Source of the DNA: a virus | Strand: one strand, 5' to 3' | IMG/VR virus record: IMGVR_UViG_3300045117_000026 | Span: 1 to 64,000 of that record | DNA: 64,000 nucleotides | Part shown: in pieces, positions 6,592-59,134 of the stretch | How positions within the stretch are numbered: the stretch's first letter is position 1 | How the letters are laid out: every line of letters begins with the position of its first letter | Notes under the pieces: generated by a model | The model's input: only the letters and a program-made list of their open reading frames with translations | Databases searched by the model: none | What the model was told of the DNA's origin: nothing | Made by a program: the position numbers and the translations under genes

Positions 6592-6613
6592 ATAAACTCC
6601 TTTTATTTATTTA

Positions 6614-6940
6614 CTATCCGAGTACCTTGCCAGCGGGATTGCGTTCCCGTGGTGTCCACTCAAAAGTGACCTTACGGCCGTCACAAAGCTTGAAAGCTTG
6701 ATGCGCTAATGCCTGTAACCGCTTCTCTTTAATCGACCATTCGCAGCGAAGCTGATTAATTATAAGCTGACTGTCTGACACGATATTTACATCATCGGGT
6801 ATAGACTCCAGCGCCCAGATAACCGCCATATACTCAGCCTCATTGTTAGTTGCTGTTTCAATTTCCTTTATCCGAGGCGGTTCATCCTTTACCTTGTAAC
6901 AGATTTGGTGCGGGTTGGCATCTACATAGACTGTCTTCAT
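6614..6940 (-). CDS. ribonuclease HI-like protein
   Basis: VYVD, TNNEAEY, SDSQL, W.PRE.N.A motifs. Confidence 0.9.
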   Translation of the reverse strand: MKTVYVDANPHQICYKVKDEPPRIKEIETATNNEAEYMAVIWALESIPDDVNIVSDSQLIINQLRCEWSIKEKRLQALAHQAFKLCDGRKVTFEWTPRERNPAGKVLG

Positions 6941-22867: not shown

Positions 22868-24088
22868 TTAATCCAAACTCAACCCAGGTGTCACCGTAAC
22901 CCTGTGTTTAATCAGTTCGCAATAGTTCTCGGATTGCTCCACCAGTATTGACCGCCTGCCTAATTGAGTCGCTACCTTTCCTGTAGTACCTGTTCCGGCG
23001 AACGGGTCAAGGACAATTTGCGGTTCAATAGGAGCATTACAATCGCACTGTGGTACCCAAGAACTTTTAGTTACCTGCGACATTCGTTCCAAAATGCGTT
23101 GCTTCAGGCGTGAGGGAGTAACGGCGCCAGTACCTTCATAATCTTTCATGTCGCTACCGAAATACTCGCCGTCACTATTACAGCCGGCTCGTTTCATTTC
23201 CTCGGTAATCTGGTGGTCAATAATAGTAATCTCACGCTGCCAAGGTTTGCCACACTTTGAGCATTGTCCTTTAGCAGATGTAGCCATTGAAATACACAGG
23301 CGAGGTATCTCTTCGGGGAAAGCAGCGAAGTGCGAAAGCCAATTATTTGTCCCACACTTCCGGCACCACCGCCCATCTTCTTTGAGAACAGTCCCCTTGG
23401 TGAATTCATCCCGCCCGTAAATCGTCTTGCACGTCAGGCACATATTGGCTGAGTAAGATACAGTCGGTATCTCCCATATTGCTCGGATGTTTCTGCCCGA
23501 GTTTGCGCACCTGTCACCAGGCTCGACTTGCCTCATGCCGTGCTCACCCTGCCCCTTAAGCTTCATGTTGCCATCGCCATATTCATTGCGCATTCTGGTT
23601 GACTCTTTATATGGGACACGGACGGCTTCCATGTCAAAGAAGTAATCTTCATTTAGCACAAACATAAGAATATGCTCGTAGTCAATCGTCGGTCTATCCG
23701 GTGCGGATGACGGCATTGAATTCGGCTTCACCCATATTATATCAGCTCGTGGTATCCAGCCCTCATCAGCTAATGCTATAGCAATGCGATGCGGGATTAA
23801 CTCGAGGTCCTTTGCTCTGGTGACGCCGAACTTATCGCCGACATTCCAGAAAACAACCCCGTCATTACGCAACACTGGTAACAGCGAGCCACAAAAGAAA
23901 TCAACTGTATGCTGTACATATTCGGCAACCGTTTTCTCTGCTCCAAACCATGCGTTACCATCATAGTCTCGCTGATTGAAATACGGTGGCGAAGTGACTA
24001 CGCATTGTACCTGGTAGGGCAGGGTGGCAAGGTCCTTGTTATCTCCATGATAGAGGGAGAGGAGAGGGGTCTGGTAAAAGACTTTCAT
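22868..24088 (-). CDS. N4-cytosine/N6 DNA methyltransferase with Zn-ribbon insertions
   Basis: TSPPY, HFAAFP, VLDPFAGTGTT; several CxxC. Confidence 0.9.
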   Translation of the reverse strand: MKVFYQTPLLSLYHGDNKDLATLPYQVQCVVTSPPYFNQRDYDGNAWFGAEKTVAEYVQHTVDFFCGSLLPVLRNDGVVFWNVGDKFGVTRAKDLELIPHRIAIALADEGWIPRADIIWVKPNSMPSSAPDRPTIDYEHILMFVLNEDYFFDMEAVRVPYKESTRMRNEYGDGNMKLKGQGEHGMRQVEPGDRCANSGRNIRAIWEIPTVSYSANMCLTCKTIYGRDEFTKGTVLKEDGRWCRKCGTNNWLSHFAAFPEEIPRLCISMATSAKGQCSKCGKPWQREITIIDHQITEEMKRAGCNSDGEYFGSDMKDYEGTGAVTPSRLKQRILERMSQVTKSSWVPQCDCNAPIEPQIVLDPFAGTGTTGKVATQLGRRSILVEQSENYCELIKHRVTVTPGLSLD

Positions 24089-33728: not shown

Positions 33729-34265
33729 CTACCCGCCCCTCGGGCCGTTATAGAAATCGTTTCCATCAACCTTGACTTCTCCACCCTCTATCACAAGCGT
33801 TGCTTGGAAACCCATCCCGCCCTCGTAAGAGAGCATTTCAAATCGCAATGACGGGAATAACTCACCAGCTTTTATGATAAGCGGAGTAGGCGGGGACCAT
33901 GCGGTCTCAAAGGTATACTCCACTTTACCTTTTGGCTTGGTGGTTGACTTAGAGATCATTTTCACCTCGCAGAACCCCCACTTGGTACCCCAGTTGTCAA
34001 TACACCACTCATAGCCACCGCTGTTAAAGCCGTTCTTTGGACGGTTCTCCAACAGAGATGAGAAGTTAGGGTCCTTAGCTTTATTCTCCCGTACTTCCCT
34101 GTCCCACTTCGTGGCTTCCTCATCCAGTGTCCTGAACTCCTCTGGATAAGGGATAAGCTTGTTGGCATCCATTAAAGAGTTTTTCCCTTTAACTAACTCC
34201 ACAAACTTCTTTAACTCTCCAGAGGGCCCCGTGATTGTAAGATCGTTCTCGCACCAGTTAGGCAT
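33729..34265 (-). CDS. DUF1281/YubB ferredoxin-like family protein
   Basis: MPNWCEN, W...NWGTKW, FETAWSPP. Confidence 0.8.
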   Translation of the reverse strand: MPNWCENDLTITGPSGELKKFVELVKGKNSLMDANKLIPYPEEFRTLDEEATKWDREVRENKAKDPNFSSLLENRPKNGFNSGGYEWCIDNWGTKWGFCEVKMISKSTTKPKGKVEYTFETAWSPPTPLIIKAGELFPSLRFEMLSYEGGMGFQATLVIEGGEVKVDGNDFYNGPRGG

Positions 34266-34285
34266 TACCTTTTCTCCTTTCTGTT

Positions 34286-34960
34286 TTATTCGCGGGATAT
34301 ATCACGTAAATCCAGTTTACCCTTAAGTATCATGACACCACCGTTCTCCACGTTACGATACGTATTAAACTCCTCGAGTGCTTTGAATACAGCATCAACA
34401 TCATCCGTTGGTATAGCAATAATCTCGTTATCCGAATTCAAAGAGGTACCACGCACATATAGTGTCTTGGTCTTCTCATTAAACTGAGGATGGATTATGC
34501 TGGCTATGATTATCCCGTTTGATGCTTCGAAGGGACGGAATTCACGTGCTGTTTGCTGTTCCACTTGGTACAAGTACATCTTATCCCCATCGACATCAAA
34601 CAAGTCCATATGTATATCTGCCGGTCTTAGTTTTAATACTATATCGGTCCCTGATATACCGTTTAACTCATGGATAGCTGCTACCAGCGTATCAAGACTT
34701 ACATCGGACTTAGGAATAGTGACAACATCGTTGTCCCTATCTTTTACAGAACCTTGAACGTACAGAACCTTATGATTCCAATCAGGAAAATCTTCACTGC
34801 TGATAACAATCCCGCAACTAGTTCCATAATCCCTTGCGTGCTCAAACCCACGTTGCTCGACTACTTGGAGTAATATGACATTCCCGATGTCCTTCAGCAA
34901 TACTGATAGATAGGGTCTATCGCCAGATTCAATCGTTGATGGAGTATTAATTTTCTGCAT
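34286..34960 (-). CDS. hypothetical protein with tandem internal duplication
   Basis: Two copies of QV.Q..S.GI.I.S...P....LYV.G.....DN....IP..DV. Confidence 0.65.
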   Translation of the reverse strand: MQKINTPSTIESGDRPYLSVLLKDIGNVILLQVVEQRGFEHARDYGTSCGIVISSEDFPDWNHKVLYVQGSVKDRDNDVVTIPKSDVSLDTLVAAIHELNGISGTDIVLKLRPADIHMDLFDVDGDKMYLYQVEQQTAREFRPFEASNGIIIASIIHPQFNEKTKTLYVRGTSLNSDNEIIAIPTDDVDAVFKALEEFNTYRNVENGGVMILKGKLDLRDISRE

Positions 34961-35020
34961 TTACCTTTTCTCCTTTCTGTTATTACTCAGCTTATTACTA
35001 CTCCTTAGCGCACTTTCATT

Positions 35021-36004
35021 TTACACCTCGTATATCGGACATCTGCGGTAATTGGTTAACAGCCTATTCCGGAAAGCAATAGTGTGTCGATTGTTCCATA
35101 CCTCGTTCATAAAGTTACCAGAATGAACAACATCCACGCCATCGCACACATTCTCGGTGAATGAGCAAGGGAAGCCAATGCCTTTAGCGTTAATGTAGTA
35201 GGAGAACAAGGTTGACTCACACGGCTCAACGCTACTAGCATCCACAGATACGCCGGAGTTGATTACGTTATGAGCACTACAGCTATCAAAGCCGACAGTT
35301 ACCTGCCTGTCCAATGATGCTTGGAGTAATCGCTGATATGACCTTGTATCCTTTACTTTACTGAACCTTGATGTCTGTCCGCGACCCTTTGGCTTAAAGG
35401 CAAGAAAGACAATAGCGTTGACCTCGAGACCCATAGCTTTAGTGTTACTCACCTCGGTAATAAGGCGAACGCAATCATCAAGTGTTTCCTCAGAGAGAAG
35501 TGCATGGATATTATTCTGCGTGATACCACGTTTCCTTAATTCATGGAGAGCGGTAAAGCATACGTCTTTGTCATAGTACGACACCGCCACCGCTCCACAC
35601 AGCTTGGAGAGAATGTCATAGTACCTCGGCGTCATACGGAAGCCGTTGATAGTAATGTTGGGTATAACGCCTTTGCTTCGAGTATACTCAAGGATGGCGG
35701 GGAGGTCGGGGTTGCCATCAATGTCTCCTATGCCGAACGCTATTTGCGTGAGGTTACTTGGAGCTTTATCAATGATACCCTTGAATGTATCAAGGCTCAT
35801 GTTGTAACCATCAGCAGTATTACCCTTATAGCAGAACCTGCATCCTTGATGACAGACGGTGCTCAGTTCAATATCAAGGAGTTCCGGACCAAGTGGCGAC
35901 ACCTGCGGGTCGTCCTGTATGGTGTTACCCCAACGCATAAAGAAGCCGTTGTTTTGATTGAATATGTAGTTGTAACCAGGGTGCTTAACTACTTTGAGCG
36001 ACAC
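35021..36004 (-). CDS. radical SAM protein with Twitch/SPASM-like end
   Basis: CHQGCRFCY, KPKGRG, FDSC, CES...PCSF. Confidence 0.88.
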   Translation of the reverse strand: MSLKVVKHPGYNYIFNQNNGFFMRWGNTIQDDPQVSPLGPELLDIELSTVCHQGCRFCYKGNTADGYNMSLDTFKGIIDKAPSNLTQIAFGIGDIDGNPDLPAILEYTRSKGVIPNITINGFRMTPRYYDILSKLCGAVAVSYYDKDVCFTALHELRKRGITQNNIHALLSEETLDDCVRLITEVSNTKAMGLEVNAIVFLAFKPKGRGQTSRFSKVKDTRSYQRLLQASLDRQVTVGFDSCSAHNVINSGVSVDASSVEPCESTLFSYYINAKGIGFPCSFTENVCDGVDVVHSGNFMNEVWNNRHTIAFRNRLLTNYRRCPIYEV

Positions 36005-36418
36005 GCTAATGACCTTTGCTGTGCTTGTTCTATCGCCTCTTTAAGGCTCCAGTGCGGGGTATACTTAAATGTCTTCTCATTGACCTTTAACTTGCTTGTC
36101 CAGTTTTCCCATTCTTCTTTGGTCACATCCTTATCAATCCATTTGACGTCATACTGGGTTAAGCGGAAAGGCTCATGAACAAGGAATGGTAAGCGGTATG
36201 TAGCCATGAAGATTGCCTGCACAAGGGTCTTGCCTGCGCCATTGTTGAACCAGAAGTTCGCTTCGAATGACCCCCATCGGATATAGTGTCCCTTGCTATC
36301 GGTACCGATGCGCCATCCGTATCCGTCAATGGTGAAATCGTAATGCTCAATACGCTTGTAAGGAAAGATTCCATTGCGCTTGTCGTCCTTTTCGACAGTT
36401 ACCGTGATGACCGGTTCT

Positions 36419-36925
36419 TTAACTATTATGCATTCTGTCTCTATTGTTCTCCTGTTCGTCTGTACAAAAGACATTAAACTCTGTACCGCAGGATGAGCAT
36501 TTGGCACAGGTTATCCTTGCCGGTGATATGCTTACATCCGCCAAGCAATCAGGATTAGGACAAACTACCTTGTGTGGTGGTGGTACCATTCGCCTTAATT
36601 CGGCAGTATCAATGTAGCAGATATTACCGGGAGGTACAGTCTCAGTTTGGAATGCACGCTTGAAAGCTTCGATGGTAAGAACAACTATATCACCAGTTGG
36701 TCTTGCTTCAAGCTTGTTTGGACCATCAACCCCGATAAGCAGAACGCCATTGGTGAGATACTTGTCACCGCATTCCTTGCATACGTTAGGAGACCATGAC
36801 CTCATTGGTGCCTTGTCTTTACATTTGTTACCAAGCAGCATTATCTCCCCATTGTCTCTTTGGCATATGGGACAGATGCCGATGGTCGGGTTTAATCCGT
36901 ATTCTTTATGGAGATTGATGGTCAT
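36419..36925 (-). CDS. multi-Zn-finger hypothetical protein
   Basis: HKEYGLNPT..CPIC, CKEC, CPNPDC, CSSC. Confidence 0.6.
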   Translation of the reverse strand: MTINLHKEYGLNPTIGICPICQRDNGEIMLLGNKCKDKAPMRSWSPNVCKECGDKYLTNGVLLIGVDGPNKLEARPTGDIVVLTIEAFKRAFQTETVPPGNICYIDTAELRRMVPPPHKVVCPNPDCLADVSISPARITCAKCSSCGTEFNVFCTDEQENNRDRMHNS

Positions 36926-37110
36926 TTACTTTACCTTCTTTGCTGTCGGCGCTTTTGCAGTCGGCTTGCTATCCACAGGCTTCAGATCGCTGACTACCTT
37001 GACGCCTTGGATGGACTGTATCCAATCCCGTAGGAAGCTGGCATTCTCTTTGCTGGATGCCTCGATGTTGACCTCAACACTGAAGATCGGCATGGTGTCT
37101 CCTTTCTTTC

Positions 37111-38142
37111 TTAATAGTTCATGTCTATATCAAGTTTATACTTGACCGCTGTTTTAAGCACTGAGATGTAATTCTTGAGAATACTTTGGAATCGGGTTAC
37201 TACGCCATACGTCATAAGACGCGTTGCGTTGTCCTCGAATGAGATGGAGAAGAACAACAGGTGGTCCGATGATTCCAGTATGGTCTCAAGTAACGGGATA
37301 AGAGGCTCGGCATCTTTATACCATAGGTACTTGTTGCGGTAGATAAGAGTTGACATGAAGCGATTAATAATTGGACCACCTGTATTCGGTATCCTATCAG
37401 CCTTTATAGACTCGCTTATGGAGCCTAGCGCCACAACAGCTTCGTTAAAGAACTTCTCACCGGCAAGGTTAACTTCACCATTACCCAATAACATCATTAG
37501 CTTTGGTATGACATCCTTTGGTTTCTCATTATCGGCATGGCGGAGATGTGGGAAGCTGAAGAGACCATCAGTCGCTTTCTCATTAAACTCCGAACTGAAC
37601 ATGTATGACAGGGTCAGATTAAAGCCAGCCTTGAACCCTGCTATTGACGGGTAGTTGGAAAAGCGGACATAGCAATTGCGCTCGTTCTCCATGCAGATTG
37701 GACACTTGCTACATATCTTGATGCGTTGCTCATAGGTTAGTTCACCGTACCAATAACTTTCCCTGTGGTCTTCACCAGCTTCCAATAGGGCCTTATTCAC
37801 ACGTTGTGAGGTAAGACCCTTGAATGGAATATAGGTAGTGGCTCTGTATTCGGCAACCGGTTCAAGCAACCGTCGGGTTGCGGGACTTAGTTCGTCAAAG
37901 AACATGGTATTGGTTTCAGAACGGAAAGCTTCCTTGAATAACTGATCCGCAACATCAACCGAGATTTTTTGAGCTGCCTCACGGGTAAGTATCTTGTTCT
38001 TTTTGCGGTACTTCAACCACGGGTCATTGCCGGTTTCAGGTATCTTAATATAGACCCCGACAACAGAGGTCCTATGCTTACGGCACAATGCGAACTTGGA
38101 AGCCATTAAACTCTTTTCGGTAAAACTGATATCAATACCCAT
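37111..38142 (-). CDS. hypothetical protein
   Basis: 343 aa; AAGGAG SD; CSKCPIC..C cluster. Confidence 0.65.
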   Translation of the reverse strand: MGIDISFTEKSLMASKFALCRKHRTSVVGVYIKIPETGNDPWLKYRKKNKILTREAAQKISVDVADQLFKEAFRSETNTMFFDELSPATRRLLEPVAEYRATTYIPFKGLTSQRVNKALLEAGEDHRESYWYGELTYEQRIKICSKCPICMENERNCYVRFSNYPSIAGFKAGFNLTLSYMFSSEFNEKATDGLFSFPHLRHADNEKPKDVIPKLMMLLGNGEVNLAGEKFFNEAVVALGSISESIKADRIPNTGGPIINRFMSTLIYRNKYLWYKDAEPLIPLLETILESSDHLLFFSISFEDNATRLMTYGVVTRFQSILKNYISVLKTAVKYKLDIDMNY

Positions 38143-42215: not shown

Positions 42216-43328
42216 TTAAGGAAGCCGGAGCTTGTGGCGTCGCTCCATCGTGGAAAAGGCTTCCAGGCGCTCGCGCTCGGCTATGAAGCACTCCTGCGCC
42301 CTCATCCCCTGCTCCACGGATATGCGGGTCGTGTCCCTCTCGATCTCGTCCCTATCGGGACATAGTCTTGATACCAAGTCCTCTATCTGCTGGTAGCGCT
42401 CCTGGGCTTCCCGCTTCTCTACCAACTTCAGCATGAGTGCGTGGTCACGGTACACTTCCCTCTTCGCAGCCACCACAATGGTAAGCACCATGTCAGGCGG
42501 CACCTTGTGCCACCTTGGTTTGTACCGCTTCATCGCCACCTGTAGGGTGATGGGGTCCTTGCGGTACTTCCACCAGTATTCCATTCCCCCGTAGTGATGG
42601 GGACAATCGGCGGCTTCTTTGGAATAGACGCAGTTGGTACAAGTCTGTTTAACCGCTGTACCTGGCTTCTTCGGGTTGTATACCAGAGTCCGCATTAACT
42701 GCGCCTGACGGAGCAATGACCTGTCGGGCTTGCACCGCCATAAGCCGGAATGTTGTTCGTAGGTGAAAGGTGGTCGCTCATAAGTGCCGCACCTTTCGGT
42801 AATGATGTCATTACGGATGTTGAACTTGTGGATGTAATTGGCTAGGGGATGCTCCATGCTATCCCAGTGGTCACACCCCTTGCGAGTGGTACACTGCGGG
42901 CACCGGCATCCCACAACCCGTGGGTAGCCATTCCCGTCACATAACGCTGGCACATTCAACCCTGGATAGACAACGGTGTCTTCACCAGCGGTAAAGTCCC
43001 AGCCGAATGCAGTTACCTTGCCGGTGTCATGGTCATGCGGAGGCTGCCGCTTGGGACAGACCTCAGCGGCGATGCACCTCAGATTTTCACTCGGTCGGTA
43101 ACACTTCAAATGTACTGCAGAGAGCGGCATCCATCGGGGCTTCTTCCGTTCCTCCTCTTGGAGACGGAGATATTCCTCGAACGCCGCATTCCGTTCAGCC
43201 GTCGGTAACGAGTTGATCTCCTTGAGGGTACGGCGCTTGGTAACTTGCGCCGTACCTTTCAAGGACTTCCGGCGGACAGAGGGTGCTCTCGTGATCGTAC
43301 CGTCGAGGTTAATAAGCACCCTACCCAT
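42216..43328 (-). CDS. Cys/His-rich early protein with N-terminal LDG motif
   Basis: 370 aa; starts MGRVLINLDGTIT. Confidence 0.65.
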   Translation of the reverse strand: MGRVLINLDGTITRAPSVRRKSLKGTAQVTKRRTLKEINSLPTAERNAAFEEYLRLQEEERKKPRWMPLSAVHLKCYRPSENLRCIAAEVCPKRQPPHDHDTGKVTAFGWDFTAGEDTVVYPGLNVPALCDGNGYPRVVGCRCPQCTTRKGCDHWDSMEHPLANYIHKFNIRNDIITERCGTYERPPFTYEQHSGLWRCKPDRSLLRQAQLMRTLVYNPKKPGTAVKQTCTNCVYSKEAADCPHHYGGMEYWWKYRKDPITLQVAMKRYKPRWHKVPPDMVLTIVVAAKREVYRDHALMLKLVEKREAQERYQQIEDLVSRLCPDRDEIERDTTRISVEQGMRAQECFIAERERLEAFSTMERRHKLRLP

Positions 43329-43331
43329 TGA

Positions 43332-43640
43332 CTAGTTTCCTGCCGGTGCAGTTTCGATGGTTGCCGGGACTTCGGTGACCTTGGCAGCGACCTTCTTGGG
43401 ACGGGGAGTAGCCTTCTTCCCCGGACGAGCCAGGAGATTGGAGGCGATTTTGACGCAGTAATCAAGGATGGCGGAATCGGGGGCGTTGGTGAAGCGCTTC
43501 TGGAGGCGATCCCATGCCTTGAGTCCCTCATCGGACAGGGTCGTGCTCTTGCGACCGGGGTACTTGACCTCACCGTTGCCAGAGGCGCCGCCGGTGATGG
43601 TCCCATCGAGTTTGATTTCCACCTTGGAACGAGTAGACAT
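43332..43640 (-). CDS. RHH-like protein with LDG motif and basic tail
   Basis: IKLDGTITG; STTLSDE..helix..AILDYCV; first gene after promoter. Confidence 0.6.
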   Translation of the reverse strand: MSTRSKVEIKLDGTITGGASGNGEVKYPGRKSTTLSDEGLKAWDRLQKRFTNAPDSAILDYCVKIASNLLARPGKKATPRPKKVAAKVTEVPATIETAPAGN

Positions 43641-43780
43641 CTTGGGTCTCCTTTCCTATTTGGTGCCACACCCGGTAAGCGTATGCTCCTCGCTGGTGTA
43701 GTCACCTGTCAGGTGCTTGCGGAGCTTTTGGTCTATCGACCCCTCGACCCCACGCTCCGCCCTGCCTCCCTGACAGTGAT

Positions 43781-43809
43781 ATTCTAGCATAGCCAGACTA
43801 GGCAGTCAA
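43781..43809 (-). promoter_or_regulatory. sigma70-type early promoter
   Basis: TTGACT-17-TAGAAT with extended TG; same hexamers as 15118-15146. Confidence 0.8.
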
Positions 43810-43867
43810 GTCGGTACTGTGGGTGAACTGGGTGCTGTGGGAGGCCAGGGTGCTGACTACCGGCTGA

Positions 43868-44560
43868 GTATATACCCACAGAGTATATACCCGCGTGGTA
43901 TATACCCCCCTGATAGCCCACTGACTCAGGTGGCATAGGTGGGCAGTACCCGGCCGGAGGAAGCCCCGCAAACACGCAAAATCCTTTCAGGAAGGGGCAT
44001 CCTTGGGGGTGGCAAGGGAATCAGTCACCCAGGTGGAAATGGACACCAAATAGGGGCATTGCACAACGTTTTCCTCGTGGGCGTTTAAGGGGCCGTAGGT
44101 GGACAAGGTATATACCCACGTTGGTGCTGGCACCTCGATTTGCGTTTAATAGGCCGGGTATATACCCAAACGGCACCCCCACCATCTCAGGTATATACCC
44201 GCGTTAGGTATATACCCAAACGAGTGGGCTATTAGGCTTGGTATATTCCCCTGTCTCTATCTTTGTACTGCACCTAGTACTATATCTAGTATTATATATT
44301 ATATTATATATTATATATATATATATATATTATATAGTGCACAGGGGGGTGGGGATGATATTGCTTATAGAGAGCAATATCATATGGGGTGGGGCTGTAG
44401 TATGCACATGTAATTAACATGCACTTAATAGACCCCACCCACTGTGCTCTTTATAAGCACAGTACCCCACCCCCCATTGTTGTGCAATATGGACTAAGAC
44501 CTATATATGGACCAAGACCTATGTAGGTGCTGTAGGTATATACCGTCTTAATAGCCCACT
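43868..44560. repeat. GTATATACCC repeat cluster, AT-rich core and nested inverted repeat
   Basis: 7 exact GTATATACCC; (TA)n about 44280-44335; imperfect palindrome centred near 44412. Confidence 0.85.
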
Positions 44561-44646
44561 GAAAATGGTAGTGGACACCAACTACACCTATATGACCATA
44601 TGCACCATGGTACGTCTGCCTGGTGTTCGGCTTGCCTCAGTAATAG

Positions 44647-44675
44647 TTGACAAGGCATAGCCGATATGATAGACT
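44647..44675 (+). promoter_or_regulatory. sigma70-type early promoter (divergent)
   Basis: TTGACA-17-TAGACT with extended TG. Confidence 0.8.
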
Positions 44676-44850
44676 ATTTACAGTCAGACGACAGACGTTT
44701 GACAGGAAAGGAGAAAGGGTATCATGGGTGACACGGGGTGTAGGTCTTTCGGACGTCAAGTGCGACTCTCACACACCGATGGCTACACGGCTAGAGTACA
44801 ACGATGTCTCGAGGACTTACATCGCAAGGTAAGGCAAGTGAGGAGCTAGG

Positions 44851-45066
44851 GTGAATTACTTCGTCAACAAGAACCAAACACCTGAAGAGAGGAGAGCCAA
44901 GTATGCTCTCCTCCGCTCCCACGGATTTAGCCCCATGAGGGCAAGGAGAATGAGAGACTGCACAATGTCCACGATAAGGAGTTTCGTCAGCTCCGGGTTC
45001 ACCGATAATTGCTTCGGTAGACCCACGACACACATCTCACTCGATGGTATAGTAACGAAATATTAA
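44851..45066 (+). CDS. small basic protein with C-terminal ISLDGIVT motif
   Basis: GAGGAG SD, GTG start. Confidence 0.6.
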   Translation: MNYFVNKNQTPEERRAKYALLRSHGFSPMRARRMRDCTMSTIRSFVSSGFTDNCFGRPTTHISLDGIVTKY

Positions 45067-45264
45067 GGAGACGGCAGTGGACCCAATTGTACAACTAATA
45101 GAGGCTATCGCCAGGGACATCACCGTAAGGGATGAGAATGGCAACCCTACACTCGCTACTGACTCCGACAGGGAACTAGGGATTCTCGGAATACTGGCTG
45201 CTTACTCCATTGGTGAAGAGGCTGTCACCAATATCCTGGGGAAATAAATATAAAGGAGAACGAA

Positions 45265-45594
45265 GTGAAAGGACTTATCAAGCACCACGAAGTCGCAGTC
45301 TCCGAACTCCCGATGTGCGACATCTGTAAGAAACAGGTAGCCGCCTACGATGCCAAGATGAAAGCGGGGCCGTGGGCCTACATGTGCGAGAGCTGCTTCG
45401 GCTCTCACGGGATCAGCACCGGGCTGGGGCTGGGACAGCGACTCATCTGGTGCGAACCAGTGAACCTGCCCGCCACCGCTCCAGTGCCCTCTGTACCACT
45501 TCACGTCGGCACCAACAAGGTGGTGCTCTTCGGCACACCGCTCAATGTGAAAGTGGGAGTCAAGGGGCAAGTCACCAAAATCCAAGTCATCTAG
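45265..45594 (+). CDS. Zn-finger phage protein
   Basis: CDIC...YDAK...GPWA.MC..C...GLG.GQ. Confidence 0.7.
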   Translation: MKGLIKHHEVAVSELPMCDICKKQVAAYDAKMKAGPWAYMCESCFGSHGISTGLGLGQRLIWCEPVNLPATAPVPSVPLHVGTNKVVLFGTPLNVKVGVKGQVTKIQVI

Positions 45595-45607
45595 ACCACT
45601 GACCAAA

Positions 45608-45647
45608 GGGGGCCGGGGCCTTTCTCCCCGGCCCCCTTTTCTTTTTG
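45608..45647 (+). terminator. intrinsic terminator
   Basis: GGGGGCCGGGG/CCCCGGCCCCC stem plus T-tract. Confidence 0.85.
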
Positions 45648-45659
45648 TCCGCAGTTAAA

Positions 45660-45940
45660 TACCCGGTATGTATATACCCATAGGTATACTTGGAGCAAGC
45701 TCCACTAGCCAAAGGCGATTCAAGAGGTGGTGCACATGGATAATACCCATACCGCAGGTGCTTGCCCCGTTTGCGTTTAATAGGACGGATGGTATATACC
45801 CATTGGTATACACGGAATATACCTATTGGCGTTTAAGAGGACGGTACGGATGGTATATACCCACGACGTGGGAGCGCTCAAGATTGCGTTTAAGAGGACG
45901 GTATATACCCATAGGTACGTATACGTGGGAATATACCCAC
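45660..45940. repeat. second GTATATACCC cluster with GCGTTTAA(G/T)AGGACGG units
   Basis: 4 exact GTATATACCC; three GCGTTTAA(G/T)AGGACGG about 57 bp apart. Confidence 0.85.
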
Positions 45941-45960
45941 GACAGCCTGGAGGGGGCCAC

Positions 45961-45993
45961 AAAAAAAAGAGGCTGTCTTGCGACAGCCTCTTT
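45961..45993 (-). terminator. intrinsic terminator
   Basis: AAAGAGGCTGTC/GACAGCCTCTTT stem plus T8 on - strand. Confidence 0.85.
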
Positions 45994-46013
45994 CACTGTG
46001 TTGCTACTCTGGC

Positions 46014-46295
46014 TTATGGCATCGGTAGTAAGTCTCGATCGCCTTTGCCTTCGACGATATCGTGTCTGCCTGAAGCCGTCATGTCGCCATACAGCCGACT
46101 TCGCCAAAATTGGCAGCCGGCTTTTTTATTTAGCAAGCCAAAGCTTTTCAATATCTTGGCTTGCTTCTGCCTGCCTTTTCTATCAAGACTTTTATACTTC
46201 AAGTCTTGACACGGCTTGGCAGCCGGACACACTAAACACTTGTAGTTGCCACGTGTGACTACGCCGTCGCTGATGCCTGATAAAATCTCTGCCAT
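46014..46295 (-). CDS. small Cys-containing early protein
   Basis: CLVCP....C...C; GAAAGAGG SD. Confidence 0.6.
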   Translation of the reverse strand: MAEILSGISDGVVTRGNYKCLVCPAAKPCQDLKYKSLDRKGRQKQAKILKSFGLLNKKAGCQFWRSRLYGDMTASGRHDIVEGKGDRDLLPMP

Positions 46296-46560
46296 ACTTT
46301 TGCCTCTTTCGTTTCATATTTGGCAGTTTATACGATACTGCCAAACGTCTTGATTATGATAACTTTGCTTTTAACTCTGCCAATGTAGCGTTTTTTGCCT
46401 TGAGTATCTTTTTGACGTCTGCCATCTTGCCTATGATTTTGACAATCAACATCGCTGCCTCTTCTCTTATGTATTGGCAGTTCTACGCTACTGCCAAACG
46501 GCTGAGATGTATTTAGCAGACTATTTGCTTACTCGCCGTCTGCCATGGCGATTTTCGTCT

Positions 46561-47022
46561 CTAGACTTTCGCCTCTTCTGCTTCAGCCTTCGCCGTAGCT
46601 GTTTTCTTCGTCTCTGCCTTTGCCTTTGCCTCTGCCTTTGCCTTTGCCTTTGCTGTAGCCTTGGCAGTAGCTTCAGCCTTTGACTTGATTTCGCTTCTGA
46701 GTTCAGCAATTTCATCAGCAAACGTAGTCACTGATGCAGCCTCAAGCCTTGCTATGGCTGCTTGAATAGCTGCCTTGCGATGCGATGACGTGTTATAGCC
46801 AGACTTGACAGCAGTGTACATCACGCAATAGTTCATCACCATTGTCATTGATACCTCATCGCCTTTATTCTTCGCCTGTAGCCATAAGCGAACGAACATC
46901 AAGAATGCTAAGTAAAGTGGCTGTATGAAGTAATGAAGAGTATTTCTCTTCACTTGAACACCGCCGGCGTCTTTGCTTCTAGCGCCGCTGATTTTGCCAT
47001 CTAGAGAGATTATTGTTTTCAT
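46561..47022 (-). CDS. RHH-like protein with LDG motif and histone-like AK tail; paralog of 43332
   Basis: IISLDGKISG, QVK, NYCV, (AK)n tail. Confidence 0.65.
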   Translation of the reverse strand: MKTIISLDGKISGARSKDAGGVQVKRNTLHYFIQPLYLAFLMFVRLWLQAKNKGDEVSMTMVMNYCVMYTAVKSGYNTSSHRKAAIQAAIARLEAASVTTFADEIAELRSEIKSKAEATAKATAKAKAKAEAKAKAETKKTATAKAEAEEAKV

Positions 47023-47274
47023 TTTAGTAGCCTTTTCTACTTTAACAGTTAGGCGTTTAATATTTCGTCTAACTCTATCATTCTAGGCTTCAACATCTAA
47101 GCTTTAATGATAGTGATTGCCTGTCTAGCTTTGAATTTGCCTGTTTATAGCCTCCTGACTATTGACGCCGGCTAATAGCCGGCTGATTAGCATAAGCTAA
47201 TCAAGGCAATCATTGAAACTGTATTAAATTGTTAACTGTTTTCGTATCGTCGTGACATACGAAAGTATGTCACT

Positions 47275-47303
47275 ATAATATATTTCAACATTTGATATGT
47301 TAA
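47275..47303 (-). promoter_or_regulatory. putative sigma70 promoter
   Basis: TTAACA-17-TATTAT upstream of hairpin-rich leader. Confidence 0.5.
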
Positions 47304-47769
47304 TACGTGTAACCACTACACTTTTACGAATGAGCTTTATAGGTATCCTTACATGGTTAAAGCCAGGTGTATGGGGGATTCCCTCTCGTCCAATTTGCGT
47401 CGGGCCAGTGGAATTTGGGCAATTCTACTTATGGTGATTGAGCGAAGTGGACGGTGGCGGATGGTGGTGGGGATGATAGAGTAGCCGCATAGGAGGGCGA
47501 ATTCGATGAAGAACATAACTCGGGCGAAATATATAACCAAGGTAAAATACATTGCGATTGCGTTGCTAGGGGCGATTTTGGCGCCTGTTTTGCTGTGGGT
47601 GGCACTCGGGGTCGCCTTGCATATCAGGTGCCGTAAAAACAGCCCCAGACAACGATTTAGCGAGATACTACAAAAGGTCGGCACTTGTTGATAACTACCG
47701 ACAATTTGTATGGCCCTTGACACGGGGTCTTCGCTCTGTTAAAACTATATATTAGAGGACGACCCGAAT

Positions 47770-49338
47770 ATGACAAAAAATCCGACAATGTTGCCCACCC
47801 CGGAGATAGAACTCCTCAATGAGCTAGAGGGGCAACTCAACCGCCCCGAGAGCAAGGAAGCCAAGAGAGCCAAGAGCGACTTCGGGTATTTTATTTCCAA
47901 GATATTCCCCGCATGGAAACTCAAGCCCTTCCACAGGGAAGCCATCAGGTTACTGGAATCCACGAACTCCGAAGATGAGAGATTGCTGTTCCTCTGGCCC
48001 CGTGGATTCGGCAAGTCGTCACTCACCTCGGTCGCCTACCCGCTATGGAGAATCGCCAAGAACCGCGATGTCAGGGTAGTTATTGCCACCAATATCCAGA
48101 GGCTCGGTATGGAGTGGCTCCGCGAGATGGAAGACATCATGATGAAGAACTTCATCTACCGGGATTGGTTCGGCAACATGGTCCCAGAACCGCGGACGCT
48201 TACCTGGACCGATACTGAAAAGATTGTTCTAGGACGGACGCCGATGGCAACCCATACCACTTTGTATACCATCGCTGTCGGCGGGTCAGCTCTTGGCAAG
48301 CGTGCCGATGTATTGATAGTTGATGACATAATGGAGCCGGAAGAGGGTATCATGACGTCGCTGATGGCGAATAAGGTCAATGAATGGTTCTGGAAGGTCC
48401 TCTACCCCGTATGCGAACCCGGCAGCAAGAAGATAGTCATCGGGACACGGTTTGGAGACGGTGACCTTTATGGTCGCCTTGTTGACAGGCGATGGAACAC
48501 CTTCCGGATACCGGCGCTTGACGAGCATGGCGAGTCAACCTTCCCTGAAAGATTCTCCACCAAGGAACTACACTCCCGCCGAGAGGATATGGGTACCACT
48601 ATTTTCAATCTTCAATATATGAACGATATCGGTGGTCTGATAGGGAACATGCTCAAGAGCGATTGGCTCCACTATTATTTCGAGACCCCGCCGCTTAGAG
48701 AGATGACCGTTATGATGGCGGTTGACCCACAGGCGTTCGACAAAGTAAAGGTCAAAGACGGTACGGACCCGGACTATTTCATTATCATGGTTGGCGGATA
48801 CTATGCCAAGATAAGAACACTTTATCTACTTGACATGATCCGCACCAGAGCAACACCCATGCGACAACTTGAACTTATCAAGACACAACTTGATAAATGG
48901 CATCCGGCGGTGACAGGCATTGAAAGCAATGCGTCCCAGGTCTTTGTTGCCGAGATGGTACAAAAGACAACCAATCTCCCAATCAAGAAAGTGCCGTCCG
49001 TTACCAGCAAGGAACTTCGCTTCATGAGTATGTCGGCACTGTTTGAGGCCGGCCGGATATTGATTCCCGGTACCAAGGACGCCGATACCGTCATGCCAAG
49101 AGAGGAGTTCAAGGCATTCAAAGATGAGTGGGCTTTGTTCCCCAACGGGAAACATGATGACACGCTCGACGCTGCTTCCATTCTTGCCAGGATGCTGCCG
49201 AACGCTTCACCAAAAGCAGCCGTTGGCTCGCTTGATGTCAAGGACGATAAACCGCAACAGTTTATGACGAGGCCTATAGTCAAAATGTTCGACAGGACAA
49301 TTGGGCCAAATCGTGTTAATATACTTAGGAGAATGTAA
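47770..49338 (+). CDS. terL: terminase large subunit
   Basis: PRGFGKS Walker A, IVDD Walker B, AVDP, HDD.LDA nuclease motifs. Confidence 0.95.
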   Translation: MTKNPTMLPTPEIELLNELEGQLNRPESKEAKRAKSDFGYFISKIFPAWKLKPFHREAIRLLESTNSEDERLLFLWPRGFGKSSLTSVAYPLWRIAKNRDVRVVIATNIQRLGMEWLREMEDIMMKNFIYRDWFGNMVPEPRTLTWTDTEKIVLGRTPMATHTTLYTIAVGGSALGKRADVLIVDDIMEPEEGIMTSLMANKVNEWFWKVLYPVCEPGSKKIVIGTRFGDGDLYGRLVDRRWNTFRIPALDEHGESTFPERFSTKELHSRREDMGTTIFNLQYMNDIGGLIGNMLKSDWLHYYFETPPLREMTVMMAVDPQAFDKVKVKDGTDPDYFIIMVGGYYAKIRTLYLLDMIRTRATPMRQLELIKTQLDKWHPAVTGIESNASQVFVAEMVQKTTNLPIKKVPSVTSKELRFMSMSALFEAGRILIPGTKDADTVMPREEFKAFKDEWALFPNGKHDDTLDAASILARMLPNASPKAAVGSLDVKDDKPQQFMTRPIVKMFDRTIGPNRVNILRRM

Positions 49339-53926: not shown

Positions 53927-54931
53927 ATGCCGTCTAGAGAAGAGCAAAGGGAATTAGGCGAAATCGCTAAAGGCGACCTGTATATGAATAAACAGGAGAG
54001 CGATAAGCCGTCGCCTTTTGTTGTGCAGATGCACGTTCGTGGAATCTTTACCGACTCGGAGAGATTGGCATTACTCAAGAAGCCGACTGCCGAGTCTTTA
54101 CGAAAAGCCGGTTGTGAGTATCTGAACGGTAGTGTCCAGGAATTCACCAACAAGCTGGATAAGGCTGATGCTTCAGAGGATATCTCGAGCATACAGAAGC
54201 AGTTTATCGTTGACGTCCCAGACGACTTCGATATTGCGAAAGTCATCAATCGTGGTAATTCGCACCATGACTTGAGGATTCATCCTGCAGGAGAGAAGCA
54301 CCTGATTGGCTGGACGATTACGGCTCCTCGATTCGCCGTACAGTTGTTAAAGACAGGCAACATACTATTCCCCGGCAGAGACAAACTTCTTGCGAATGAG
54401 GCTGGCGACAAGATACCGTCGGTAAAGAAAGCGAAGCAACCCGTGGAATGGTTGACGCTGGTTACTAACGGCAAGAAAACATATGAAGCAGACGCAGGGG
54501 AAGTTGGTGCTACTCCTGAAACCGGTGGCAAGTTCTTCTTCAATGCTTCCGGCTCCCTGCTGTTCGGCGTACAGAAAGATGACTATCACGAACTGTTCCT
54601 GCGGTTTGATCCCCCGTATAGTAAACTCTCCGGAAGATGGGGTTTTCAAAAGATAGCTGGCAGCCCGTCATACAATAAGGTTTCTGCCCAGTGGTGGATG
54701 ATGGATAAGGTGTATGAAAACCCTGCCCCTTATATAATCCATTATTCCAGGGAAGCTAAAGAGAAGCAAGCGAAAGAAGATGGAATCAAACAGATTATAT
54801 GGAATGCCAAGACACTATCTTTACTTAAGTCTCTTGATTTCGGCAAGCAATTGCTAGAGGGTATTGACAAGGAGAAGATAGATGAAAAGATTGCCGAATA
54901 CTCCAATGGTGGTGGAGTATGGGAAGCCTAA
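53927..54931 (+). CDS. LigD 3'-phosphoesterase-like protein
   Basis: FVVQMH...HHDLR...GWT...K..Q..EWL resembles LigD PE catalytic motifs. Confidence 0.6.
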   Translation: MPSREEQRELGEIAKGDLYMNKQESDKPSPFVVQMHVRGIFTDSERLALLKKPTAESLRKAGCEYLNGSVQEFTNKLDKADASEDISSIQKQFIVDVPDDFDIAKVINRGNSHHDLRIHPAGEKHLIGWTITAPRFAVQLLKTGNILFPGRDKLLANEAGDKIPSVKKAKQPVEWLTLVTNGKKTYEADAGEVGATPETGGKFFFNASGSLLFGVQKDDYHELFLRFDPPYSKLSGRWGFQKIAGSPSYNKVSAQWWMMDKVYENPAPYIIHYSREAKEKQAKEDGIKQIIWNAKTLSLLKSLDFGKQLLEGIDKEKIDEKIAEYSNGGGVWEA

Positions 54932-55121
54932 TGATTAAAAGCGCGTGGACAGCACAAGGCAACGGCTTTGCTCCTTTCCCGTTCGCCCCAAATACTCCTA
55001 TCATGGCTACCACCGGCCATCGGTAGGTGCTGTCCCGTCTTTTTGTTTGGAGAGAAACTTGGCAGAGTTCGGGAGTACGTTCGACAAACCAATCAACATT
55101 ACAAGAGTGGATACTGACAGG

Positions 55122-55265
55122 ATGCGCGAATCTGCTAGTCCTTCCGCCTTAAGGCTGTTGTGGGTTATCTCGCAGATAGGGTACGGTGAACTACGGGTAA
55201 TAGTTAAGAATGGTGAGCCGGTCAGGGTGGTAGAGGCCGTCAAGGAGATCAAACTCGATGTCTAA
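55122..55265 (+). CDS. DUF2292/YezD-like small protein
   Basis: IGYGELRVIVKNGEPVRV.E. Confidence 0.6.
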   Translation: MRESASPSALRLLWVISQIGYGELRVIVKNGEPVRVVEAVKEIKLDV

Positions 55266-55875
55266 TACGTCAGAACTTTCGCAGTTTTCCAAATACAACA
55301 GGTTTATTGTTAACTTCCAGATTGGCAGCAAAGGCGCTGATATTGCTGGGACCCCGTGGCACCTGAAACTTGATATGTCGTTCTTTATTGACAAGCTTGG
55401 AGATGACAAATTCCTTGCCTGGTGGAATCAGTATGCCGGATACGGAGATTGCCCGCGGTCTGCCATCAGCGATGCGATCATCCATATTGCTCATGAATAC
55501 ACAAGGCTGTTGTCTAACCTTGAGAATTTGTCCAGCGAGGAAGCCAAGAATGCCGAGATGCTAGGCTGGATATTCGAGCCACGCAAATGATCCTAAAAGT
55601 TGTGATGGTGCACTGGAGAGATGTTTCTACCGAGGATTCTTTGGTTCCTCAGAAGGGCACTAGCCTGTTAAGCACGTGGCCCAGATGTGATGTCGGCTTC
55701 CTGTTATTCGATGGTAAAGATGAAGACGGCGTTGAGGTTGTAAGGATTTCTCCGTTCTATGCGTTCCATAATAACGAGGTCTTTTACCAGAGTATCGTAA
55801 CGTACCCGAGGGCCATCATTACTAAGTTAATGCATTTATGCGAGCTGGATGTTGGGAAAATTTCTCCAACAGCCC

Positions 55876-55972
55876 TTGACAAATAAATATTTGTGTGCTT
55901 TACTTCCTGTCAGAACACTTGTTTTTGCCTAACAGGACAACCGGGGCAGTCTTACGACTGTCCCGTTTTTTT
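55876..55972 (+). promoter_or_regulatory. promoter plus leader terminator upstream of capsid gene
   Basis: TTGACA-17-TTTACT with TG; CGGGGCAGTC-TTAC-GACTGTCCCG-T7. Confidence 0.65.
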
Positions 55973-55980
55973 AGGTCTGA

Positions 55981-58698
55981 GTGGCAAAACAAAGAATGGA
56001 GGACGCAAGGTCGATGTCCAAAACTTTACTAGAGGCCAAAGTGGATGCGGAGGTGTTTGGGGCTATCAAAGCCGCACTGGGGAAACTCAGTGCCGTGTCT
56101 GACAAGTTGCCCGAAAAGGCAAAGAAAGCTGTCGAGACACTAGCCTCTATCCTTGGTGGCAAAGTTGAAGCCAAGGAATCCGAAAAAGCTGAAGAGAAGG
56201 CGGATGAGGAAGAAGTGAAGTGTACCGGCAAGGAAGATTGTCCTTGTCCTGAATGCAAGAAAAAGCGCGGGGAAGAAGTAGAGGAAGCTTGCAAGGGCAA
56301 AAAGCCGGGTGAGGCTGATGAGGAATCCGGGGAATGCACTGGGGAAGAAGATTGTGAATGTCCGGAGTGCAAGAAAAACAAAGCCAAGGCTAAAGAGGCC
56401 CTGCGGCCGAGTGAAATCGTAAAATCACTCGACCTGCTTTATGAGGCCGAGAAAGAATCCGGGGACAAACTGCCCAAGGATGTCATTACCGCTATCAAGG
56501 CGCTGATGACAAAACTAGCTGATGTTCTCAAGGACCTCGGTTACTCATACAGTGATGGTGGGAGCGGTAAGGGGTTCTATCATAATGATAAGGACTCCAA
56601 GCACAAGGGTAAGAAACCGCCTGCCTACTATTACTCATCTTCCTATGGAGATGCCACTCAAACTGTGCGTGAGCCTGTACCACATGACAGGAAGCGCATC
56701 CAGGCTTCCGCCAGACTGATTGAGTCTGTTAGCGGAACAGAGGGCAAGAAGTGGCACGCCGTCCTGATTCAGTCAGGTCTATCGAAGAACCGTTTCATGT
56801 ACCGGGATGATGTACTCGAAAAGGCTACGCCTCTCTTTGAGGGGTGTAAATCCTATGTTGACCATCCGAATACAACCGACAGGAAACAGTTACCTGAGAG
56901 AAGCGTGGCTGATATTGCTGGATGGTTCGAGGGTGCTACGAAGCAACCCGATGGCATTCATGCTACGTTCCATGTAGCAGGGGGCAAGGAATGGCTCCGT
57001 GAAATGTTCATTGATGCTTACGAGCACAATAAGCCCGACCTGCTCGGTTTCTCAATCTACGCCGAGGGTAAGACCCGTGTTGACAGACAAGACGGGAAAC
57101 TAATCTGGATGGTTGAGAGTATTGACAAGGTAGATTCCGTTGACGTTGTGACTCAACCTGCAGCCGGCGGTCGAATTGCCGGACTAATTGAATCCGAAGA
57201 TGGAGAAAGAGAAATGAAAGAACTCGAAAACATGACAGTTGAAGAACTGTCGAAGATTCGTCCGGACCTGGTCGAATCTATCAAGAAAACTGCTCAGCCC
57301 CAGCCGCCACCCAAGAATGATGAGGGGGATAAGGTGATTGCGAGGATGGCTGAAGCGGAAAAGGCAATTAATGTTAAGCTTTGCGGCGTTGCCTTAAAGG
57401 AAAAGCTTGCTGGTAGTAAGCTTCCTGTCGCCTTTAAGGAAGCCATCGAGAAGGACTTCGCCGGTCGTGTTTACCCCGAAGCCGAACTTGATGCCCGAAT
57501 CACCCGCGATACCGATATCTGGGCAAAAGCTTCTCCCCCGCCCCAGCCCGTTACTTCGAGAGTACGGGAAATGCACGAGAACAAGGACAACATCAGCAAG
57601 GCTCTTGATGCCATGATACAGAACAAGACGGATGTAGATGGCGTCAAACCGTTCCGGTCTCTTACCGAGGCCTACGCAACCTTTAAGGGAGTGCCGATTG
57701 TCGATGTTAATCCCCTGAACATACTCCGTGAATCGGCTGCCGGATACGATTCTGGCGCCAGGACCCTGAGGGAATCCGTTACCACTTCCTCTTGGGGTGA
57801 AATTCTTGGCGACTCCGTTACCCGTGCCCTGCTTGCCGAATACAACATCCCCGGCCTTGATGATTGGCGCAAGGTGGTCTCCACCATTACCAGCCTCAAG
57901 GACTTCCGGACTCAGCGCCGGCAGAGACTCGGCGGATACGGCACTCTGCCGTCCGTCGGACAGGGTGCTACTTATCAGTCTCTTACCTCACCAACTGATG
58001 AGGAAGTCACCTACTCTCCGAGCAAATATGGTGGGTTGGAAGACCTGACCATAGAAACCATCGCCAATGACGACCTCGGTGCCGTTCAGTCCATTCCGAG
58101 GCGTCTCGCACGTGCCGCCAAGATTACGCTGTATCGCTTCGTGTTTGACTTCCTTGCGAACAACAGCTCCATCTATGACGCACTTGCCCTCGCCCACTCG
58201 ACCCACGGCAACATCAGCACCACCGCCCTGAGTTATGCTCAGGTAATCTCTGCCGTCCAGAAGATGCGTGACTTCACCGCCTACGGCGCGACAACCGAGT
58301 TCTTGCAGATTCGGCCCAAGTTGCTCGTAGTCCCGAATGAACTCGAAGCCACTGCGTTCTACATCAACACGATGGATACCTATCCGGATACCGTTACCCC
58401 GGCTGCCGGTGGTACCGCTGCCGTTGACCTTCGCCGCAACATGGTTAAGGGATGGTTCGAAGTTATCGTGGTTGACTACTGGACCGATGCCGATAACTGG
58501 TGGCTGGTTGCTGATCCCAAACTCGCCCCGACATTCGAACTCGGCTTCCTTAACGGGAAGCAGGAGCCTGAACTGCTCTCGCAGAACGACCCGACCCAAG
58601 GCTCACTGTTCTCTGCCGATAAGGTCTCCTACAAGATACGCCATATCTACGGCGGAGCCGTTCTTGATTGGCGGTCATACTTCGGCGGGATAGTGTAG
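55981..58698 (+). CDS. prohead protease/scaffold fused to major capsid protein (Mu gpT-like)
   Basis: DHP, GFSI, SVD.V..PAAGG protease motifs; DDLGA, LVVP.EL, GFLNG..EP capsid motifs. Confidence 0.9.
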   Translation: MAKQRMEDARSMSKTLLEAKVDAEVFGAIKAALGKLSAVSDKLPEKAKKAVETLASILGGKVEAKESEKAEEKADEEEVKCTGKEDCPCPECKKKRGEEVEEACKGKKPGEADEESGECTGEEDCECPECKKNKAKAKEALRPSEIVKSLDLLYEAEKESGDKLPKDVITAIKALMTKLADVLKDLGYSYSDGGSGKGFYHNDKDSKHKGKKPPAYYYSSSYGDATQTVREPVPHDRKRIQASARLIESVSGTEGKKWHAVLIQSGLSKNRFMYRDDVLEKATPLFEGCKSYVDHPNTTDRKQLPERSVADIAGWFEGATKQPDGIHATFHVAGGKEWLREMFIDAYEHNKPDLLGFSIYAEGKTRVDRQDGKLIWMVESIDKVDSVDVVTQPAAGGRIAGLIESEDGEREMKELENMTVEELSKIRPDLVESIKKTAQPQPPPKNDEGDKVIARMAEAEKAINVKLCGVALKEKLAGSKLPVAFKEAIEKDFAGRVYPEAELDARITRDTDIWAKASPPPQPVTSRVREMHENKDNISKALDAMIQNKTDVDGVKPFRSLTEAYATFKGVPIVDVNPLNILRESAAGYDSGARTLRESVTTSSWGEILGDSVTRALLAEYNIPGLDDWRKVVSTITSLKDFRTQRRQRLGGYGTLPSVGQGATYQSLTSPTDEEVTYSPSKYGGLEDLTIETIANDDLGAVQSIPRRLARAAKITLYRFVFDFLANNSSIYDALALAHSTHGNISTTALSYAQVISAVQKMRDFTAYGATTEFLQIRPKLLVVPNELEATAFYINTMDTYPDTVTPAAGGTAAVDLRRNMVKGWFEVIVVDYWTDADNWWLVADPKLAPTFELGFLNGKQEPELLSQNDPTQGSLFSADKVSYKIRHIYGGAVLDWRSYFGGIV

Positions 58699-58714
58699 AA
58701 GGAGGAATGATAAA

Positions 58715-59134
58715 ATGGTAATCTCTTTACATGATGTCCCCGGAACTTTCGTAAGCGATCCGATCACCATCCCGAAGCAGGCTAACGCCGAACTGGCCGA
58801 CTTCGTGGTATTCCGGGCGCCTTTTAAGTGCAAGGTAACAAAGGTTCTTGTTACTACTGGCGCCAACTGGGCTGGAGTAAACGATGCTACTAACCACAAC
58901 AGATTTGTCCTTCTTGATGTTGGTGTTGGTGGCACCGCAACCCCAAGTGGCCTTGGTACAATTTCCGGTTCTCCAACTGGAACTGTACTGACTGCCTATC
59001 AGCCGGGTACCCTCTATTCTGGTACTCTTAGCTGCGAGGCAAATCATGAACTAGTCTTCCGTGTCGGCACCGTCGGCACCGGTACTACGGCTGCACCTGC
59101 GGCCGCTTGTATTGTGGAGTTTATAGGCGCCTAG
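58715..59134 (+). CDS. putative capsid decoration protein
   Basis: Small Gly/Thr-rich beta protein right after MCP. Confidence 0.55.
   Translation: MVISLHDVPGTFVSDPITIPKQANAELADFVVFRAPFKCKVTKVLVTTGANWAGVNDATNHNRFVLLDVGVGGTATPSGLGTISGSPTGTVLTAYQPGTLYSGTLSCEANHELVFRVGTVGTGTTAAPAAACIVEFIGA

Follow-up and report, generated by a model that had tools for sequence, protein, structure and literature searches.

Bacteriophage T5 offers the closest described parallel to the locus considered here. EcoRI and CRISPR-Cas are effective only on the pre-early DNA of T5, and pre-early functions protect the rest of its genome (PMC5389539; 10.1101/866236); a preprint has further proposed that a pre-early nuclease of T5 could be directed at a word that the pre-early DNA does not contain (10.1101/866236). 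The subject of this text is a 1.4-kb block at positions 45961-47340 of the IMG/VR virus record IMGVR_UViG_3300045117_000026, an uncultured lake-water phage with a genome of 79,568 bp; the window in which the block was first noticed comprises positions 1 to 64,000 of that record. The block coincides with a single leftward transcription unit that runs from a promoter hub through a folded leader and three small genes to an intrinsic terminator. GG followed by A, G or T (GGD) and its complement (HCC) are almost completely missing from it; this suggests that a three-letter DNA word is read by something in the infected cell.

Like the pre-early regions of T5 and BF23, the unit is a small set of genes that appears to be transcribed by the host, judging from its promoters; the T5 region lacks the relevant sites by nature, and a repeat-rich non-coding zone lies next to it, for which the GGTATATACCC boxes adjoining the present unit may be a counterpart. 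The differences are nevertheless substantial. The T5 region extends over ~10 kb, lies in the terminal repeat and carries A1, A2 and dmp, whereas the present unit spans 1.4 kb and shows no homology to it. Moreover, the avoided word is a degenerate 3-mer, in contrast to the 6-bp site of T5.

Avoidance of restriction sites and protospacer-adjacent motifs (PAMs) by phages (PMC4246573; PMC12174588) is another related phenomenon, in which selection removes short words read by host DNA-targeting immunity. Known cases are genome-wide and mild, whereas the block is local and nearly complete, and its palindromes are not depleted. Furthermore, the avoided word is not a known PAM, and a type I-F CC PAM would not spare GCC. 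Viral enzymes that act on words of two to three bases have also been described, such as M.CviPI (GC), M.CviPII and M.CviQIX (CC/CCD) and the GCY methylases (PMC9636781), while Nt.CviPII nicks at ^CCD (PMC3017599). These chlorovirus enzymes resemble the present case as virus-linked readers of degenerate short words, but they belong to eukaryotic algal viruses, CCD differs from HCC, and there is no evidence of such a specificity in the C5 methylase of this phage.

Near-complete loss of a three-letter word

Within positions 45961-47340, GGA occurs once, GGG never, GGT once, TCC once, CCC never and ACC four times, which gives seven GGD/HCC words, compared with 75 occurrences of GGC (21) and GCC (54). 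The first-pass annotation had reported this near-absence, together with the retention of GGC, from reading the letters alone, and the counts bear it out. Word usage outside the block predicts about 123 of them; other windows of 1385 nt in the two arms contain a mean of 121 (standard deviation 17.6, minimum 80). The depletion stays significant after correction for composition: first-order Markov simulations with the block's own dinucleotides (2000 runs) gave a mean of 52.9 and never fewer than 29. A scan for the longest gap of every 2- to 5-mer across the genome placed its top three results inside the block, namely CCC/GGG at 45954-47373 (log10 E -12), GGA/TCC at 46225-47153 and ACC/GGT at 46024-46838. 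Everywhere outside the block, 300-nt windows contain more than eight GGD/HCC words.

The borders are as sharp as the earlier reading had claimed, near 45960 and 47341. The limits are the following:

45955..47341, both strands: block that admits GG only before C and CC only after G, with seven exceptions, and that lacks GGCC
45949..45958, plus strand: left border patch GGAGGGGGCC, with a G5 run made of the avoided word
47342..47392, plus strand: right border patch, ~50 nt long and holding 11 GGD/HCC words, with TGGGGGATTCCC near 47372-47383

The last GGG before the block starts at 45954 and the first GGT after it at 47342. G5-containing patches of the banned word thus adjoin both ends; the whole genome holds 73 G5/C5 runs. 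As had also been claimed, the bias extends over genes and intergenic DNA, with five residual words in 843 coding nt and two in ~540 non-coding nt; five of the seven are GGT/ACC. The two strands are affected alike: on the plus strand, GGD occurs twice against 62 expected, and HCC five times against 61. This symmetry points to duplex DNA, rather than one RNA, as the target.

Classical restriction-site avoidance was not found in the block, as palindromic sites of 4-6 bp are not depleted (4-mers 57 versus 66.6 expected, 6-mers 17 versus 14.8) and only GGCC is missing. The latter is absent, against about 10 by second-order expectation, despite the 75 GGC/GCC words, and GCCGGC is enriched, with four copies. 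All sampled words of the block were recovered from lake-water runs of 2018-2025, at least 10 in number and with no RNA run listed among them, and an independent 56-kb Logan contig spans both borders with zero differences. Chance and mis-assembly are therefore ruled out by the simulations, the gap scan and the independent contigs.

The three genes of the block use 16 GGC codons for glycine, one GGT and no GGA or GGG, while the other phage genes use 173 GGC, 155 GGT, 94 GGA and 117 GGG. All five NGG codons in the block genes are followed by C. Similarly, among codons for lysine, glutamate and glutamine in the block, the ratio of G-ending to A-ending forms is 14:6 before GC but 1:9 before GA, GG or GT (Fisher p = 0.005), compared with 210:172 before G[AGT] in other genes. 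Because GGC is used freely, the GG step as such is not the target. Ribosome-binding sites follow the same rule: as had been noticed from the letters alone, the Shine-Dalgarno sites of the block read AAAGGC, GAGGC and GAGGC, whereas AAAGGAG-type sites are common elsewhere in the genome. The encoded proteins contain 1.8% proline and 0.7% tryptophan (4.9% and 1.8% elsewhere), and glycine is kept at 6.1%. The mRNA strand of the block consists of 34.7% A; the maximum in any other 1385-nt window of the genome is 32.9%.

Loss of a tRNA for glycine codons was considered as a cause and ruled out, since out-of-frame positions and non-coding DNA are under the same ban. A near-complete and sharply bounded ban on a degenerate 3-mer implies strong, continuing selection on the DNA sequence itself. 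The cause of the purge is thus selection at the nucleotide level, not drift or composition. The earlier idea of a short-motif purge stands in this form: selective, effective on both strands, in genes and spacers alike, and paid for with weaker Shine-Dalgarno sites.

A mutational origin is very hard to reconcile with these data. Hypermutation, for example by a cytosine deaminase preferring YCC over ACC and sparing GCC, could have emptied the block of the word, with purifying selection leaving the immune codons. The order of loss (CCC and TCC, then ACC, with GCC spared) and the T-rich plus strand agree with such a process, and this order resembles the preference of some CC-preferring deaminases. 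The products are asymmetric, however, as TCT, CTT and TTT are enriched while their complements AGA, AAG and AAA are depleted. In addition, the 16 GGC glycine codons and the context-dependent codon choice would require selection anyway, and the exposure of this unit alone would be left without explanation.

Architecture of the unit and its small genes

The block lies in a 4-kb control zone between two divergent arms, 430 bp upstream of the large terminase gene. Its elements are listed below.

47275..47303, minus strand: leftward sigma70-like promoter, TTAACA-17 nt-TATTAT, by consensus match; transcript start inferred near 47268
47252..47279, plus strand: rightward sigma70-like promoter, GTGACA-16 nt-TATAAT, whose -10 box overlaps the leftward -10 box
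47245..47280: palindrome GTGACATAC-GAAA-GTATGTCAC across both promoters, a candidate operator
47023..47268, minus strand: untranslated leader RNA of ~249 nt, multi-branched
46561..47022, minus strand: gene A, 153 aa
46474..46497: inverted repeat TTGGCAGT-N8-ACTGCCAA, preceding gene B (chance expectation 0)
46354..46452, minus strand: gene B, 32 aa (23 aa if the start is 46425)
46320..46344: TTGGCAGT-N9-ACTGCCAA, a further copy of this repeat, preceding gene C
46014..46295, minus strand: gene C, 93 aa, basic, with a C-x2-C-x5-C pattern
45961..45994, minus strand: intrinsic terminator of the leftward unit, with a 13-bp stem, a GCAA loop and a T8 tract

The purge ends within ~6 nt of the terminator on one side and ~40 bp past the leftward -35 box on the other. 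Since its borders match the promoter and the terminator, the block is one transcription unit including its promoter. The first-pass annotation had proposed a first-injected genome end; the match of the borders fits an intact, readable unit at least as well as it fits the first DNA to enter. The rightward promoter is the top sigma70 consensus match in the genome. Directly past the terminator, GGTATATACCC boxes form a cluster at 45650-45950. A search for the GGTATATACCCA box pair returned one contig, which is unrelated.

The leader is closed by a long-range helix (47044-47062/47222-47240) and holds the only GGA of the mRNA strand, within AGGAGGC. Its predicted minimum free energy is -74.2 kcal/mol, with a z score of -6.7 against dinucleotide shuffles and -5.5 against triplet-preserving shuffles. 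No Rfam family was matched in 43500-48000, the leader included. A cause acting at the RNA level was also considered: the early transcript might evade a RegB- or MazF-like endoribonuclease or pairing of the Shine-Dalgarno/anti-Shine-Dalgarno type, or it might build a particular fold. The limits of the block coincide with those of the transcript, folding of the leader is very strong, GGA/GGU and ACC/UCC occur in the Shine-Dalgarno/anti-Shine-Dalgarno duplex, and windows of the block fold with a mean z of -3.1, compared with -0.6 in other coding windows. Nevertheless, triplet-preserving shuffles shrink this excess to about -2.1 in the block against -1.1 in controls, and one RNA would have to shun two unrelated words. 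True Shine-Dalgarno sites also obey the ban, and the most completely absent words, GGG and CCC, are not part of that duplex. Such an origin is accordingly given little credence.

The inverted repeats upstream of genes B and C have a possible counterpart elsewhere. An IMG/VR search for the TTGGCAGT-N-ACTGCCAA hairpin gave ~100 matches, mostly due to chance and none with a GGD-free block. One unrelated 69-kb phage with 30% GC (IMGVR_UViG_3300021142_000028, locus L026) carries at least 6-7 copies of TGTTTTGGCAGT-N9-ACTGCCAAAACA, for example at 25-49, 981-1022, 2140-2181, 4615-4639, 6593-6617 and 9975-9999, nearly identical to the two copies in the block, TTTGGCAGT-N8/9-ACTGCCAAA. This hairpin may represent a recurrent type of regulatory or processing element. 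The same phage was also considered as a GGC-poor counterpart of the block and dismissed, as its 30% GC and a general shortage of the GC dinucleotide account for its GGC scarcity.

The product of gene A begins with an N-terminal ISLDGKIS and continues with a helical body, including a hydrophobic helix; its tail is rich in Lys, Ala and Glu, and AAGGC repeats encode it. Pfam and PHROGs contained no match to the three block proteins, and searches of 5.8 billion proteins and 1.8 billion representatives found no relatives of them and no homology to A1, A2 or dmp; matches in the ESM Atlas were of no use. The predicted model of the gene A product (predicted local distance difference test, pLDDT, 67; all-helical) had no fold match in the PDB. 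For gene C, the only database match was the identical sequence itself, and the AlphaFold2 model was unusable (pLDDT 36). Further small elements were noticed in this part of the unit. The sequence ATGGCAGA(C/G) is common to three start sites, those of gene C (46295), the internal start of gene B (46425) and a mini-open reading frame (46546). The latter encodes MADGE in five codons (46546..46529) just past the stop of gene A.

The motif at the start of the gene A product is informative about the history of the unit. The pattern [ILV]xLDGx[IV][TS] occurs in four real open reading frames, all within 43.3-47.0 kb, against 0.1 expected in the whole six-frame translation. Its IxLDGx[IV][TS] sites, N-terminal in three open reading frames and C-terminal in one, are the following:

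43290-43313
43593-43616
45034-45057
46987-47010

The glycine codon of the motif is GGC inside the block and GGT or GGG outside it, where threonine is also written as ACC or ACG. A motif common to gene A and three neighbours, recoded to GGC in the block, points to a unit that evolved in place, inside this phage, and argues against its recent arrival from a donor of other composition.

This evidence bears on the view that the block is a moron, a foreign cassette imported from a donor that lacks GGD/HCC genome-wide and whose composition was retained. The block does resemble morons as an autonomous module with its own promoter and terminator and a deviant composition, the A content of its mRNA strand exceeding that of every other window, and its proteins have no known relatives. 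On the other hand, the rare motif of gene A is shared with resident neighbours, the deviation is a word ban and not a general GC shift, and the gain of A with loss of C is the expected product of removing the word in place. Donor-like sequence was found nowhere among the searched collections, and a donor with a genome-wide ban would need the same explanation. Import is thus regarded as distinctly improbable.

Candidate readers of the word

The preferred reading, held with a probability of roughly 45%, is that the block is a unit similar to the T5 pre-early region, kept free of a short word that a cellular activity reads on duplex DNA. According to this proposal, the unit would be read early by the host RNA polymerase, at the junction of the arms beside the packaging genes, while an activity in the infected cell would read GG[A/G/T] on duplex DNA. 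Candidate readers include a frequent-cutting or nicking nuclease, a DNA-modifying enzyme and a PAM-type licensing step. One hit anywhere from the promoter to the terminator would be enough to stop expression of the unit before the phage is otherwise protected. The products of the unit would then protect, or take over for, the remaining genome, in which the usage of the word is normal. The sequence itself documents the purge, its borders, the recoding and the layout of the unit. That the unit is expressed early, that the word is read on DNA and that the three proteins protect the phage are inferences.

GGC could be exempt through the reader's own specificity or, alternatively, through methylation of the GC or GCY type that masks CC steps after G. 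A GC/GCY methylase marks exactly those CC steps that follow G, so that the exemption of GGC/GCC would be explained if the reader sees GG/CC. This methylation shield is offered as an idea and not as a result. Two more specific readers, of kinds named in the first-pass annotation, were also considered. A plain GG/CC PAM does not fit, because GGC and GCC are retained and even enriched (75 copies) and AAG|GCN junctions are freely used. DarT1 as a guanine-modifying toxin is not supported, as the literature gives no consensus motif for it (PMC11543638).

Several points weigh against the proposed T5-like unit. To our knowledge, no reader with GG[A/G/T] specificity has been described. With one occurrence every ~11 bp, the word would oblige any host that uses it to protect its own DNA densely; the remaining phage genome is full of the word, and an unseen protective step would be required. 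The supposed timing of expression is deduced from consensus promoters only. The three block proteins are without detectable function.

No usable relatives of the phage, in which the ban might be traced, came to light. There was no DNA match among GenBank records of phages, IMG/VR contained no relatives of gene A or of a 370-aa neighbour, and GTDB genomes contained no prophage relatives. Relatives of the large terminase (TerL) reach at most 48% identity, and their loci (L001-L009) are without the word bias.

The phage's own enzymes offer another possible source of selection. Its leftward arm (573-43640) contains replication and recombination genes and many DNA methyltransferase genes, at least five in number:

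20798-21958: C5 DNA methyltransferase
17637-18446: PF01555 (N4/N6) DNA methyltransferase
22868-24088: PF01555 (N4/N6) DNA methyltransferase
19357-20355: D12 DNA methyltransferase
2496-3038: DNA methyltransferase, phrog_799 match

Radical-SAM enzymes are encoded as well. A phage enzyme might mark GGD/HCC across the virion DNA, with the early unit staying unmodified; this could allow clean reading by host RNA polymerase or regulators, or escape from type IV modification-dependent nucleases. The methyltransferase and radical-SAM genes are consistent with such self-modification, virus methylases with words of 2-3 bases exist (PMC9636781), and the strand symmetry and the borders of the transcription unit fit equally well. 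RNA polymerase is rarely blocked by simple methylation, however, and no phage methylase can be assigned to a specificity through its PDB relatives; that of the C5 methylase is not readable from them, its best match being M.HhaI (E 1e-7). Furthermore, no genes for DpdA/preQ0, deazaguanine or other hypermodification were recognised among the ~40 early-arm proteins that were compared with Pfam, NCBIfam and PHROGs. Avoidance of self-modification is consequently judged unlikely, although more probable than the import, RNA-level and mutational explanations.

Genome context and biological meaning

The rightward arm (47770-79141) has the large terminase gene first. Two contigs tile a circle of ~79.6 kb by length arithmetic, one covering 21107-44283 and the other running from 44344 through 79568 to ~21133. 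Joints, variants and molecule ends are absent from the contigs; assembled contigs cannot reveal genome termini. The independent Logan assemblies of two runs break alike, at 21107 (inside the C5 methylase gene) and at a repeat, 44284-44343. The position of the block on the terminase side would fit a last-packaged and first-ejected end, provided that the phage has fixed ends.

Other features of the genome were noted alongside the block. Whole-genome observed/expected ratios are 0.24 for GATC, 0.39 for CGCG, 0.47 for GGCC and 0.50 for CTAG, a separate signature of the classical restriction type. The gap scan also revealed further long gaps, as TATA is absent from 54796-59122 (4.3 kb, log10 E -6.1) and GCCC/GGGC from 34226-37788 (3.6 kb, log10 E -5.7). 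No recognisable DNA polymerase or phage RNA polymerase was present among the scanned early-arm proteins.

The block may be regarded as a sequence-level footprint of a molecular reader, and the ban has a cost in weaker ribosome-binding sites and constrained protein composition. Its rule, which permits GGC, forbids GGCC and tolerates GGT slightly, defines the specificity to seek in host defence systems or phage methyltransferases. The broader interpretation is put forward tentatively: there may be an undescribed activity with a three-base specificity (GG not followed by C), either an immune nuclease or modifier of the host or a weapon of the phage against host DNA, to which phages would answer with a first-expressed operon free of the word. 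Genes A, B and C encode the foremost candidates for a role in anti-defence or takeover at a very early stage. A gap-type scan can be applied to any phage genome, which would allow first-acting genes to be located without homology. The case adds to known phage word avoidance a form that is local and nearly complete, in DNA that is probably the first expressed.

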